A DNA stretch of 39,399 nucleotides from Candidatus Collierbacteria bacterium (GTDB lineage: Bacteria > Patescibacteriota > Microgenomatia > UBA1400 > MFAQ01). A program made the translations under genes and the position numbers. Position 1 is the first letter of the stretch. Each line of letters begins with the position of its first letter. Location: contig CAIQPO010000043.1 of NCBI GenBank assembly GCA_903873735.1, positions 1 through 39,399 of the forward strand. Direction: 5' to 3'. Below are positions 17,948-22,162 of the stretch, one piece after another. Below the pieces are notes generated by a model. That model was not told the origin of the DNA. It searched no databases and saw only the letters and a program-made list of their open reading frames with translations.

Positions 17948-18016
17948 CCTCCTCTCTTTAAATAAGATTCATCAAAGTACAGCGCGTATTATAAGACCAA
18001 ATCCTATATATATCAA
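17948..18016 (-). promoter_or_regulatory. Cassette 8 promoter + boxA-like motif + SD
   Basis: TTGATA(18016-18011, overlapping the topA stop)-17-TATAAT(17993-17988); TGTACTTTGAT (17981-17971); GGAGG (17952-17948). Confidence 0.8.
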
Positions 18017-20007
18017 GAAGCAGTCTCTACTTCTCCTTTTTGCTGTGGTTTGTGCCAACTTGCCCATGTACAGTTCGGGTAATCCTCACATCCATAAAAA
18101 TCTCTACCGGTCTTAGTTTTTTTAAGAACTACTCGCTTACCGCATTTCTCACAAGTCACTCCATCAACATATTCAATATACTGGTCTGTGTATTTACATT
18201 CTGGATATTTATCACAACTTAAAAACTTTCCAAACTTTCCATCTCTTATCACCACTTCTCCAGTTTTACACTCTGGGCATTTTTTTCCAGTAGAAATTGT
18301 GGGCACAGCTACCCTAGCACTTTCTTTATCTACTATTGCCAATCTATCCTTAAACGTATCCCAAAAATTACTTAGCATTTTTTCCCAGTTCTCCTTACCA
18401 TCAGCCACCAAATCCAAATCATCCTCCATCTTGGCTGTAAACTCATACTCCATCTCTGTTGGGAAGTTTTTCATTAAGAAATCAGTCACCGCTTCACCAA
18501 TTGAAGTAGCAAAAAATCTTCTTTCTCTTTGTTCTACATATCTTCTATCCTGAATGGTTGAAATAATTGCAGCATAAGTAGAAGGTCTACCGATTCCCCT
18601 CTTCTCCAACTCCCTTATCAAAGAGGCATCATTGTATCTTGCTGGAGGTTGGGTAAATTTTTGTTCCGACAACACTTTTTCTTTCTTCAATTTTTCTCCA
18701 GCTATCACTTCTGGAATTATTTGTGCCTCACCATTCTCCTTGGGAAATAGCTTCTTCCAACCTTCGAATTTAATTGTATTCCCATTACCAGTAAGCAAAT
18801 ACTTTCCACACAACACAGACACTCCAGTATCATCAAAAATCGCATCATTCATCTGACAAGCCACAGTTCTCCTCCAAATAAGCGAGTAAAGCTTAGATTG
18901 GTCAGCCATCATTCCATCTTGTCCTTTATAGGCACCAGGGGTAACACTGACATTTGTTGGTCTTACTGCCTCATGAGCTTCTTGCGCTACCACTTTCCCA
19001 CTTGCTTTATAAACTCTCGGCACATTTGACACAAAAGTCGCCCCATATTCTGACTCAATCTGTTTTCTAATCTGGTCAATAGCGGAATCAACTAAATTTA
19101 GAGAATCAGTACGATGGTAGGTAATGTCACCTTGTTCATATAATCTCTGAGCTACATTCATTGTCCTCTTTGCTGACCACCCAAAAGCATTTGCTGCAGC
19201 CTGCTGTAGAGTTGATGTTTTGAAGGGTGGGTGTGGAGCCACATGTCTTTCTGTCTTTGTAAGCTTGGAAACTTCATACTCGCCCTTCTCCAAATCAGAT
19301 ACAACTCTACCAGCAATCTCTCCGCTATTAACTACTGCTTTCTTGTTATCGATCTTTGCCAGCTGAATTTCAAATGCTTTACCGTTTTTTGTTGTCACCA
19401 AAGCGGAAATCTCCCAATACTCTACCGGTTTAAATTTTTGGATCTCTCTTTCCCGCTCTACTATCAACCTCACCGCAACGCTCTGGACTCTTCCAGCTGA
19501 TAAACCCCTTCTCACCTTTTTCCACAAAATTGGAGACAATTTATAGCCCACCAATCTATCCAAGAAGCGTCTAGCTTGTTGGGCATTCACCAGATTCATA
19601 TCTACCTGTCTGGGATTGTCCAAAGCCTCAAGAATTGCCTCTTTGGTAATTGAGTGAAAAGTAATTCGTTTTACTTCTGTCCCCTTTTTAAGTGAACTTC
19701 TAAGAAGTGATGACACATGCCAAGCTATTGCCTCCCCTTCACGGTCAGGATCTGATGCCAATATAATTTCACTGGCTTTTTTTGCCTCCTTCTCCAACAG
19801 GCTTACTTGTTCATCTTTTCCTTTCATCACTTTATATTCAGGAATGAAATCATAGACCGCTTTACCCTTTTCTTTAATTTCTATTCCAAATTTACTTTCA
19901 GGTAAGTCACGAACATGACCCATACTGGCCATGATCTTGAAATCACTTCCTAAGTACTTAGATAAACTTTTTGTTTTTGTGGGTGATTCGACAATGACTA
20001 AACGCAT
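18013..20007 (-). CDS. topA: DNA topoisomerase I
   Basis: LVIVESPTK, ASDPDREGEAI, SAGRVQS, ITYHRTDS, GIGRPSTYA, C-terminal C4 zinc ribbons. Confidence 0.98.
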   Translation of the reverse strand: MRLVIVESPTKTKSLSKYLGSDFKIMASMGHVRDLPESKFGIEIKEKGKAVYDFIPEYKVMKGKDEQVSLLEKEAKKASEIILASDPDREGEAIAWHVSSLLRSSLKKGTEVKRITFHSITKEAILEALDNPRQVDMNLVNAQQARRFLDRLVGYKLSPILWKKVRRGLSAGRVQSVAVRLIVEREREIQKFKPVEYWEISALVTTKNGKAFEIQLAKIDNKKAVVNSGEIAGRVVSDLEKGEYEVSKLTKTERHVAPHPPFKTSTLQQAAANAFGWSAKRTMNVAQRLYEQGDITYHRTDSLNLVDSAIDQIRKQIESEYGATFVSNVPRVYKASGKVVAQEAHEAVRPTNVSVTPGAYKGQDGMMADQSKLYSLIWRRTVACQMNDAIFDDTGVSVLCGKYLLTGNGNTIKFEGWKKLFPKENGEAQIIPEVIAGEKLKKEKVLSEQKFTQPPARYNDASLIRELEKRGIGRPSTYAAIISTIQDRRYVEQRERRFFATSIGEAVTDFLMKNFPTEMEYEFTAKMEDDLDLVADGKENWEKMLSNFWDTFKDRLAIVDKESARVAVPTISTGKKCPECKTGEVVIRDGKFGKFLSCDKYPECKYTDQYIEYVDGVTCEKCGKRVVLKKTKTGRDFYGCEDYPNCTWASWHKPQQKGEVETAS

Positions 20008-20049
20008 ACTTAATAAGATTACAACATTTTTTAGTGAGGGTATTCTAGC

Positions 20050-20082
20050 AAAAAAAATCTCCTGTGATAAATCACAGGAGAT
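20050..20082 (-). terminator. Intrinsic terminator of the large RNA (cassette 9)
   Basis: ATCTCCTGTGAT-TT-ATCACAGGAGAT followed by a T run on minus. Confidence 0.85.
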
Positions 20083-20088
20083 AAGGCA

Positions 20089-20545
20089 TCAAATGAGAGC
20101 AACCGGAGAGGGCGGCTAAGCCGCAAACATTGGGCTTGCCGCCCTCCCGGAAAAGAAAATACAGCATCACCTTTAGGTAGCCTAAAGACTCAATATGCAC
20201 TCTCGGGCCACATTGCCCGAAGCACGGAGTCTGGCACTACCTACTAAGCACGTGGCATGGAGCCACGCCCTACCCCATCTGGAGGAGGGTTGGCTTAGTC
20301 CGCATTGCGGCGTGCTGTTTCTGAAGTACCCCAAAAAGGGTATTTTATGCTAAGGCCGCGGAACGGTCTAGGCATCTTCAGCCAAGTCAGGATATCGAGG
20401 ACTTGGACTCTTACCCCGCCGCGAGGGAAAAAGAAAAAACGCGGGGCTTACAACCACAAGGGGCCGGTGCAGTGTCGCTGCTTTCGTCGGCTTCCCGAGA
20501 TAAAGACATTCATATCTTCATTTCAGGAAGTCGACTCTCATTTAA
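20089..20545 (-). ncRNA. Putative large structured non-coding RNA (~455 nt), class not recognised
   Basis: Own promoter, boxA-like motif and terminator but no SD-led ORF; 5' TTAAATGAGAGT pairs with 3' GCTCTCATTTGA; more than ten nested helices visible by eye. Confidence 0.75.
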
Positions 20546-20602
20546 TTAAAGTTCACTCAAAAAGAGTACGGGTATAATATCACCACATTATCACTTTGTC
20601 AA
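20545..20602 (-). promoter_or_regulatory. Cassette 9 (RNA) promoter + boxA-like motif
   Basis: TTGACA(20602-20597)-17-TATTAT(20579-20574) with extended TG; TGAACTTTAAT (20555-20545) directly before the closing helix. Confidence 0.8.
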
Positions 20603-20620
20603 GTACTATGAGTTTGATAC

Positions 20621-22162
20621 CTATTTTTTCATCAAAACTGGCATCATCTCTTTAACCACTGGACCAGCCACAGCCGACCCTTCTCCACCAGCTTCCACCA
20701 ACACCGTAACAACAAGCCATTCCTTTATGTCATCACCTTTGGGTACCACTACGCTAATCCAAGCATGCGGCTCATCCTTTTCACCTCCCTGCTGAGCGGT
20801 ACCTGTTTTGCAATAAATTTTCCCCCCATATTCAAAAAGTGGAAATGCCGTTCCACCCTCTCTACAAGTCATTTCCATACCTTTCTTAACCACTTCAATA
20901 TTTTTCTTAGTAATACCCACCTCGCGGCATCCTTTTATCCCCACCAGGAGCGGAGTACACCATTCTCCACTAATTACAGCAGCAGTCATTCTATTAATTT
21001 GAAGCGGTGTTACGAGCAAGTCACCTTGTCCAATAGACATGTGATAAGTATTCCCCAAAAACCACTTTGCACCTGAGTATTTTTCTCTCCAATATGGAGT
21101 CGGGACAAAACCATCTGCCTCAAATGGTAGATCTATTCCTGTCTTCTTTCCTAAACCCGTCGTCTCCGACCATTTGACCAACGACTCAACACCCAACATT
21201 TCACCCAATTTATAGAAAAAGATATCGTTACTTCTAGAAAGAGCTTTCTCCACATCCAAAGCCCCTTCAACCTTTCCATATTTATCCAAAAACCAATTAC
21301 CAAATCTGTATTCTCCAATTTTTATCTCTCCAGTATCCTCAATTATGGTTTCAGATGTAATTTTTCCTTCAGACAAACCAGCCAAGGCCGTAAGGACCTT
21401 ATAAACCGATCCAGGCGCAAACTGTCCAGAAACTACTCTATTGTACAAAGGCTTCTTATCATTATCCGACACAATAGACTGTACATCTTTAAACTCCCCA
21501 CCGTAATCGCTCCGTTTCCCAGAATTAATAAATAAGTTTGCATCATAAGATGGTAGGCTTACCAGAGCCAATACTTCACCATTAATTTTAGCGACCACCC
21601 CCGAAGCGCTCTTTCCAGTAGTATTGAGCATCGACTTAAGTGACAAAAACATGCTCTTTTGGATATCCAAGTCAATATTCGTTTTAATGTTCTCCCCAAA
21701 GACGGGATTTATTCTGGAAATTTCTTTGATATTTACTCCCTCTGCACTCTCCTCTACCAATACCTCACCCCAAGTACCCATCAAGCGATTGTCATATATC
21801 TTTTCTAACCCAGACTTACCCACCAGAGTCTCATTGCTACATTTGCTACATTTTTCCAAATCTTCCCTTGATGCTCTCGATAAATACCCAGTCACCCCCG
21901 CCAACATCTCGCCATATGGATAAAATCTAAACGTCTTACCACTCACTTCAATATTCAAAGCCATACTTTTACCAGTTCGATCTGTAATTATTCCCCTTGC
22001 TGGTAATATCGACACCCTCCTTACCATGTTCCCCTTTGCCATACCTTCATAGTAATCCCCCATAAACACGCTTAAAAACACTACCCTCGACAAACCCACT
22101 GACAACAGTAGCATCAAGGCAATTTTCAAGACAAAAAATGATATTCGTCGTTGACTCATCAA
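20621..22162 (-). CDS. mrdA: Penicillin-binding protein 2 (class B transpeptidase)
   Basis: N-terminal TM, PARGIITDR, PGSVYK (SxxK), SND, KTGTAQ; downstream of mreD. Confidence 0.9.
   Translation of the reverse strand: MMSQRRISFFVLKIALMLLLSVGLSRVVFLSVFMGDYYEGMAKGNMVRRVSILPARGIITDRTGKSMALNIEVSGKTFRFYPYGEMLAGVTGYLSRASREDLEKCSKCSNETLVGKSGLEKIYDNRLMGTWGEVLVEESAEGVNIKEISRINPVFGENIKTNIDLDIQKSMFLSLKSMLNTTGKSASGVVAKINGEVLALVSLPSYDANLFINSGKRSDYGGEFKDVQSIVSDNDKKPLYNRVVSGQFAPGSVYKVLTALAGLSEGKITSETIIEDTGEIKIGEYRFGNWFLDKYGKVEGALDVEKALSRSNDIFFYKLGEMLGVESLVKWSETTGLGKKTGIDLPFEADGFVPTPYWREKYSGAKWFLGNTYHMSIGQGDLLVTPLQINRMTAAVISGEWCTPLLVGIKGCREVGITKKNIEVVKKGMEMTCREGGTAFPLFEYGGKIYCKTGTAQQGGEKDEPHAWISVVVPKGDDIKEWLVVTVLVEAGGEGSAVAGPVVKEMMPVLMKK

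Follow-up and report, generated by a model that had tools for sequence, protein, structure and literature searches.

A candidate gene for a large structured RNA between the PBP2 and topA genes of a Candidatus Collierbacteria genome

What is encoded in the 613-nt gap between the gene for a penicillin-binding protein 2 (PBP2)-type transpeptidase and topA in a Candidatus Collierbacteria bacterium? The gap lies in contig CAIQPO010000043.1, a stretch of 39,399 nt that was analyzed at its full length and is called the window here. An original prediction, made from the bare sequence, had placed a structured, multidomain RNA on the minus strand of positions 20089 to 20545. Folding of this 457-nt core (20545-20089, minus strand) with RNAfold gave -205.6 kcal/mol, compared with a mean of -151.9 kcal/mol (standard deviation, 5.4) for dinucleotide shuffles, a z-score of -9.89, and none of the 100 shuffles matched its stability. 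The prediction of a multidomain fold is thus borne out: 16 of the 17 named helices are present in the minimum free energy (MFE) structure. The remaining one, CCGC/GCGG, is replaced by CGCC/GGTG and a 2-bp stem. In a screen of 20 G+C-rich noncoding gaps of the same genome, run with 12 shuffles per gap, the RNA region (z -14.8) and the transfer-messenger RNA (tmRNA) gene (z -14.4) were the most structured. The element is best read as a real, abundant RNA that is lineage specific, fast evolving, and of an undescribed kind.

The candidate RNA, its signals, and its expression

The gap contains, in order, a promoter, a 13-nt hairpin, the core, a terminator, and a second promoter-like site. The proposal that the RNA has its own promoter and terminator agrees with our scans, which gave 11 of 12 promoter positions together with an upstream TG and an 11-bp terminator stem followed by T8. 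Raised G+C content was likewise confirmed (0.48-0.52 in the gap versus 0.416 genome-wide). Across the region, 3 promoter-like sites were found where 0.9 would be expected, and 2 terminator-like sites where 1.0 would be expected. With a near-consensus promoter upstream and an 11-bp terminator downstream, the core looks like a separately transcribed unit, as judged from these predicted signals. The features, with RNA positions counted along the core, are as follows.

20574..20602, minus: sigma-70-type promoter, TTGACA, 17-nt spacer, TATTAT, TG before the -10 element; 11/12 in the scan
20555..20567, minus: 13-nt 5'-terminal leader hairpin, ACUC-UUUUU-GAGU, read from the sequence; start at ~20567 inferred from the -10 position
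20534..20545, minus: closing helix P1, 5' strand, UUAAAUGAGAGU; pairs with 20089-20100 in the MFE structure
20486..20535, minus: P2, a long irregular hairpin, followed by the purine linker CGAAAG (RNA 11-60; MFE)
20382..20481, minus: four hairpins (RNA 65-164; MFE)
20423-20443, minus: pyrimidine-rich 21-nt loop with the tract UUUUUUCUUUUUCCCUC, within the four-hairpin stretch (MFE)
20391-20396, minus: palindrome GAUAUC in an 11-nt loop, within the four-hairpin stretch (MFE)
20321..20381, minus: CUGAAG/CUUCAG domain enclosing AUGC/GCAU and the UACCC-UUUU-GGGGUA hairpin (RNA 165-225; MFE)
20161..20318, minus: multibranch domain closed by ACAGCA/UGCUGU (RNA 228-385; MFE)
20151-20160, minus: second pyrimidine tract, AUUUUCUUUUCC, before the 3' hairpin (MFE)
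20103..20150, minus: long 3' hairpin CCGGGAGGGCGGC...GCCGCCCUCUCCGG (RNA 396-443; MFE)
20089..20100, minus: closing helix P1, 3' strand, GCUCUCAUUUGA (MFE)
20049..20082, minus: intrinsic terminator, 11-bp stem, 4-nt loop, T8; the scan places stem and T8 at 20082-20057
20042..20070, minus: promoter-like site for topA, TTATCA-17-TAGAAT with TG, 9/12 in the scan; overlaps the terminator
20272..20472, strand not given: 201-nt metatranscriptome contig from run X4 of study P3, depth 13.4, 3 differing letters
20621-22162, minus: PBP2-type transpeptidase gene (Pfam Transpeptidase and PBP_dimer); the gene ends at 20621
18013-20007, minus: topA, DNA topoisomerase I (Pfam Topoisom_bac, Toprim, and zinc ribbons); the start is at 20007

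In the predicted structure, the two ends of the core would be tied together by P1, a helix of 10 to 12 bp, around the long hairpin and four further domains. The multibranch domain keeps its structure when it is folded alone (-74.8 kcal/mol).

Expression was assessed from four sequencing runs mapped on positions 19800-20900, as assembled contigs that give neither strand nor transcript ends. Two of the runs, X1 and X2, are DNA runs of one study that probably gave rise to the window's sequence or stand close to its source, and they were not counted as support. In X4, from a different study, the metatranscriptome cover that had been called for does exist on the body of the RNA, in the form of the single contig listed above, and topA and the PBP gene had zero cover within the same positions. 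Run X3 had cover at the promoter end and on parts of topA, and nowhere else. The X4 contig hints at an abundant transcript but does not prove one.

Taken together, we lean toward an independent, undescribed noncoding RNA gene of ~500 nt whose product acts in trans. Transcription would begin at the near-consensus promoter, and a small 5' hairpin would open the transcript and probably shield its 5' end. The intrinsic terminator would end the transcript just ahead of the topA promoter. Made at a high level, with its ends presumably protected by the 5' hairpin and P1, the stable RNA would accumulate and most likely act in trans as a folded scaffold. Candidate contacts are the two pyrimidine tracts, UUUUUUCUUUUUCCCUC and AUUUUCUUUUCC, and the palindromic GAUAUC loop; the 5' module and the single-stranded tracts may interact with partners while the rest drifts.

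The PBP2-topA gap in related genomes

The host genome, G000 (1.01 Mb in 97 contigs, 92% complete, G+C content 0.416), was proposed to belong to the candidate phyla radiation (CPR). Its size and its nearest named records agree with this assignment: a contig search seeded with the PBP C terminus returned Ca. Shapirobacteria, Woesebacteria, Gottesmanbacteria, and "Patescibacteria group." The neighborhood of the RNA consists of core genes (mreB, mreC, PBP2, topA, thyX, an Nramp transporter, tmk, and glyA), and no integrase, transposase, or phage gene occurs within about 8 kb of the locus. The closest of the genomes compared share just 68-71% of topA residues, and topA genes 46-57% identical were among the matches listed in a metagenome scan seeded with the topA N terminus.

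topA is present in all 44 genomes of the family. We examined 29 loci and could place the PBP end in 16. Twelve of these, the window included, have a noncoding gap of 464-1368 nt with a G+C content of 0.39-0.54. In another three (G026, G067, and G017) the gap is just 90-93 nt, and in the last (G005) it is filled by dprA. In the other families of the order that were examined, the PBP gene and topA are separated by dprA or by a short spacer rich in A+T. The long gaps start with the same type of promoter and a 5' hairpin, and the design TTGACAAA...TGnTAnAnT also heads the syntenic RNA units of relatives. The RNA bodies that follow are similar within genera only. The window RNA is best explained as the local, species-specific version of the strongly expressed, G+C-rich, fast-evolving structured RNAs that occupy this gap in most genomes of the family.

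The dprA gene was seen between the PBP gene and topA at locus L047 (G005, genus g3) and at L131, which belongs to another family. In the host, dprA is intact at C50:9147-9911, with 37% identity to the L131 protein. Because dprA takes that slot elsewhere, the RNA units sit where other lineages keep dprA. We rejected a dprA pseudogene as the source of the gap, since tblastn gave E > 0.2 in every gap except that of G005 and the host gene is intact on C50.

The element at the start of the long gaps bears on a further claim, namely, that a boxA-like motif precedes the closing stem as in precursors of stable RNAs. This claim is not supported. At the leader position, relatives have the hairpins UCUC-GAAA-GAGA, UCUU-GAAAU-AAG, UCUA-GAAA-UAGA, and AUCC-UGAAAA-GGAU, and the two sides of the hairpin change together (UCUC/GAGA, UCUA/UAGA, AUCC/GGAU, and, in the window, ACUC/GAGU). 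The motif is therefore better read as a 5' hairpin. The window leader, GTACTCTTTTTGAGTG, has only CTCTTT in common with the boxA consensus of Escherichia coli. The boxA-type sequence in front of 16S rRNA is another one, GCTCGTTAACAAG for G004 and G008 and GCACTTTACAAAG for the host's own contig C27. In addition, a G+C-rich protein gene on C69 (~10130-9290, minus strand), which has a Shine-Dalgarno site and a hydrophobic N-terminal stretch, is preceded by a promoter of this type and by the leader of the relatives, CATTCTCGAAAGAG, so the cassette also occurs outside RNA genes. 5' stem-loops act in mRNA stability, and the leader hairpin may more simply be a 5'-end stabilizer in a strong expression cassette. 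As side observations, the boxA-type element GCTCGTTAACAAGTGAAGCAGC is common to the G004 and G008 leaders of 16S rRNA (L168 and L169), and the host's own 16S gene (C27:178-694) is cut by the contig end, covering model positions 9-546 only.

The best comparison comes from genus g6, in which five syntenic RNAs of 584-720 nt can be aligned (L030-L033 and L038). In their consensus fold, 37 of the 120 pairs show compensatory change, compared with 20.1 (standard deviation, 2.9) in shuffles, none of 500 of which reached 37, and with 7-15 when partners were slid; the five sequences in which the changes were counted had also served to derive the structure. Rfam gave no match in the g6 locus scanned (L015). 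In three g6 genomes (G013, G062, and G036), a second promoter-driven unit of ~300 nt lies between the RNA and topA.

The window RNA and the g6 RNAs are alike in the gap they occupy, the strand, the promoter type, the 5' hairpin, and a terminator before topA. They also resemble each other in the order of their first elements: an A+U-rich long-range helix, a long G+C-rich hairpin, and CGAAGA in g6, and P1, P2, and CGAAAG in the window. They differ in length, the g6 RNAs being about 150-250 nt longer, and in their bodies, which have no blastn similarity; the multibranch core of the window was not found in g6. We built two models of the g6 RNA, R1 for the 5' module (the strand of the long-range helix plus the UUCGGCCGC...GCGGCCGAAGA hairpin) and R3 for the 3' module (the GCAUAUUACCCCC hairpin plus the GAGACUCCGUGAG hairpin). 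With filters off, the best match of R1 within 651 nt of the region was P2 of the window RNA, at the correct end and on the correct strand (14.8 bits, E = 7.8e-4); with default filters, R1 had no match in the whole window. Toward the 3' end, the UACCC-UUUU-GGGGUA hairpin of the window resembles the g6 motif GCAUAUUACCCCC..GGGGA, and the shared 10-mer AGACTCCGTG is 118 nt away in the window instead of about 30 nt. We regard the window RNA as the equivalent of the g6 RNAs in position and architecture, and not as their demonstrated homologue.

Weighing a role in trans against the alternatives

Several results weigh against an independent RNA gene acting in trans, or limit how far it can be generalized. 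The core itself has no detected relatives. By blastn it matched none of 60 relatives, and a search with the whole upstream region against 28 loci of the family gave matches confined to the PBP gene and the promoter. R2, a covariance model of the multibranch domain, matched none of 43 family genomes and, with filters off on 25 syntenic loci, reached E = 0.71 at best. Phage and plasmid records had no match to the RNA either. Since no homologue of the core was found, no covariation backs this particular fold, and the absence of homologues is evidence against a widespread class. The proposal of a new class of noncoding RNA thus stands insofar as the RNA lies outside Rfam, and falls short insofar as neither blastn nor R2 found a homologue; because the RNA is an orphan, "class" is premature.

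The link to g6 has its own weak points: the runner-up of R1 in the region is an unrelated terminator hairpin on the other strand (10.6 bits), R1 matched genus g6 alone (5 of the 141 genomes searched in the order, which are 5 of the 7 sampled from g6), and R3 matched the window's GCAUAAAAUACCC...GGGGUA hairpin weakly, with its first hairpin only (9.5 bits, E = 0.034 locally). The plus strand of the core is nearly as stable as the minus strand (-198.0 kcal/mol, z -8.70), so the assignment of the strand rests on the promoter and the terminator and not on folding. The evidence for expression is one assembled contig, with possible DNA carry-over in library X4, and its two listed differences point in opposite directions, G235A preserving the pair with U377 and A205U disrupting a pair. 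G026, G067, and G017 have no RNA in the gap, which implies that the content of the locus is dispensable there. Finally, the scaffold role in trans is a presumed one. A body that turns over this fast would suit a scaffold in which few sites are constrained, and also a function bound to the locus or none at all.

In a broader version of the preferred reading, the RNA locus as it occurs across the family may be of more interest than the single RNA. The PBP2-topA gap might give rise to large, ornate RNAs, made at a high level, whose bodies are renewed within genera although place, promoter, 5' hairpin, and closed ends are kept; the window RNA would be a species-specific member of a new kind of fast-evolving structural RNA and might assemble with itself or bind a partner peculiar to the lineage, in organisms whose genomes of about 1 Mb leave little room for idle DNA. 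We put this forward tentatively, as a possibility that we consider less likely than not.

It is unlikely, in our view, that the position matters and not the product, with the unit serving as a cis-acting leader or attenuator of topA, as a transcribed insulator from the mre/PBP operon, or as a setter of local supercoiling at the topA promoter. In that case the RNA sequence could drift freely provided that it still folded and terminated. What is kept across genera is the place, the codirection with topA, the promoter, the leader, and the terminator, with unrelated bodies between them, and the terminator overlaps the promoter-like site of topA; these features would suit such a role. On the other hand, topA has a promoter-like site of its own, which is retained in the two same-genus relatives (TGTTAGAATACC was found again before topA in both), and three genomes of the family as well as the other families examined do with a 90-200-nt spacer or dprA. 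The selection for specific helices in g6 also exceeds what would be expected if any fold would do.

We consider it quite unlikely that the sequence is functionless or selfish, for example a decaying mobile or horizontally acquired remnant at a permissive spot, which would account for the different sequence in each genus or species. Its status as an orphan among 60 relatives, a G+C content above that of the genome, and a gap length ranging from 90 to over 1368 nt would all be in keeping with such an origin. They are countered by the core housekeeping neighbors, with no mobility genes within about 8 kb, by the lack of a phage or plasmid match and of any direct evidence of mobility, and by the exclusion of a dprA remnant. 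Moreover, the promoter, 5' hairpin, and terminator have been kept, and a fold with 52% G+C and a z-score of about -10 would be expected to erode by drift in a genome of 41.6% G+C.

Returning to the preferred reading of an independent RNA gene, its closest parallels are OLE, ROOL, GOLLD, and raiA-motif RNAs. Like these, the window RNA has a length of several hundred nucleotides, an ornate fold of many domains, its own promoter and terminator, and no translation, and its function is not evident from gene context. According to PMC12286853, ROOL, GOLLD, and OLE form homo-oligomers, and at a guess the 11-nt loop with the palindrome GAUAUC could mediate self-association in a similar way. Unlike OLE, ROOL, GOLLD, and raiA, the window RNA has no model match, and its Patescibacteria host and gene neighborhood differ. 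Classes of the OLE type are also defined by many homologues, which covary and keep conserved nucleotides across orders or phyla; no homologue of the window RNA was detected outside its own genome. The literature that we searched linked no large RNA of the OLE/ROOL/GOLLD kind to Patescibacteria.

Few large structured RNAs of bacteria lack a known job, and the ones that have been studied (OLE, ROOL, and GOLLD) are unusual molecules. That a 1-Mb genome spends 0.5-1.4 kb at a single locus on a strongly promoted, tightly folded, untranslated RNA suggests a real function. A body that changes by genus while place and signals are kept is unlike classical ribozymes and riboswitches and would imply a different evolutionary regime. 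If, instead, the RNA is idle, then structure-based finding of RNA genes needs more than a promoter, a terminator, and a z-score of -10.

Known RNA families and coding potential

The RNA falls outside every described family tested, as had been considered possible. All 4227 families of Rfam 15 were scanned: there were 0 matches at the gathering score in the whole window, and in a permissive scan of 751 nt (19950-20700) no family reached E < 1, with 3 chance-level matches at E = 1.6-3.5. These were snoZ13, RFPL3-AS1, and PyrR, the last of which fell on the terminator and the 3' hairpin with 21.8 bits versus a cut-off of 54, and all three were rejected. A scan of the loci of four relatives gave 4 matches (E = 0.26-0.96), all far below the cut-offs. 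Models for OLE, ROOL, GOLLD, raiA, HEARO, and group II intron domains had no match in the window or the region.

That Rfam missed a very divergent version of a known RNA (RNase P-like, 6S, signal recognition particle [SRP], OLE/ROOL/GOLLD, or a ribozyme derived from a group II intron) therefore seems highly improbable. One point in its favor is layout. Type-A RNase P RNA has a closing helix of its two ends, then a long hairpin, then a purine-rich single strand, and the order of elements in the window RNA recalls this P1-P3-J3/4 arrangement. Rfam also loses sensitivity in CPR bacteria: the RNase P RNA of G000 is short (297 nt) and scores 106.7 bits with RF00010, narrowly above the cut-off of 100, so the models seem to be near their sensitivity limit in this lineage. 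Against a divergent family stand the absence of any family at E < 1 in the region under permissive settings, or at cut-offs in the loci of four relatives, and the presence of rnpB and ssrA elsewhere in the genome, together with the failure to find the SRP proteins.

Individual candidates were rejected on similar grounds. For RNase P RNA, RF00010 and RF00011 gave nothing in 19950-20700 at E <= 10, the window RNA lacks the conserved GAGGAAAGUCC, and rnpB lies at C11:6314-6610. For tmRNA, ARAGORN found 0 tRNA or tmRNA genes in the window, and ssrA lies at C29:410-819 (RF00023, 120.2 bits). The window RNA is thus neither of these two, as originally supposed. 6S RNA is a rod of ~180 nt with a central bubble. 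As an abundant, promoter-driven RNA conserved in structure over sequence, a 6S-like product would suit a fast-evolving gene. In contrast to the 6S rod, the 457-nt MFE fold is branched, and RF00013 had no match in the region or the genome, although this model is weak and gave a match in just 7 of 14 control genomes.

SRP RNA was likewise removed as a candidate, because the SRP proteins were not found and such an RNA would lack a partner. RF00169 and RF01854 were unmatched in the region and in the genome. The Ffh M domain (PF02978) was found in 0 of 6 genomes, the SRP54-type GTPase domain (PF00448) in 0 of 3, and FtsY (TIGR00064) over its cut-off in 0 of 5. The signature of SRP-type GTPases is DTAGR...TKxD, and none was present in a six-frame translation. 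Searches with the SRP54 domain gave just 13 weak partial matches in 91 genomes of the order and 1 weak match in a phylum sample of 71 genomes, G000 included. The expectation that rnpB, ssrA, and ffs would all be located elsewhere in the genome was accordingly met by the first two, on C11 and C29, and not by ffs, as the SRP pathway itself was not found. According to PMC8080830, many CPR bacteria lack two of the SRP subunits, so the absence of SRP from CPR is, to that extent, already known; in PMC10768705, mentions of SRP refer to the host and not to the CPR cell. The breadth is nonetheless striking, with a convincing SRP54-domain match in none of the sampled genomes.

Seven other G+C-rich structured gaps of G000 were also checked; four hold tRNAs (7 matches) and three had no match. 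Two gaps, C50:5236-5678 (plus strand) and C25:3031-3401 (plus strand), have z-scores of -7.5 and -6.4 (12 shuffles) and matched no Rfam family at E <= 0.01.

It is scarcely credible that the region codes for one or more small proteins: open reading frames (ORFs) of 42-90 amino acids are present on both strands and a conserved 8-codon ORF led by a Shine-Dalgarno site occurs in another unit of the relatives' gap, but none of the 5 ORFs tested there reaches a Pfam cut-off, the minus-strand ORFs are preceded by no Shine-Dalgarno sequence, in line with the original prediction, and the relatives' mini-ORF is absent from the window.

This mini-ORF deserves mention in its own right. It encodes M-K-K-x-(L/F)-D-x-x-stop (e.g., AAGGAGCTTCTTGAAAAAGAAACTGGATAAGCTGTAA), is conserved in the gaps of relatives, and sits in the first unit of the gap in L020 (G002), L026 (G001), L025 (G012), L027 (G033), and L023 (G066). 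It looks like a leader peptide, lying ~60-150 nt downstream of the conserved promoter and followed by a G+C-rich structured stretch.

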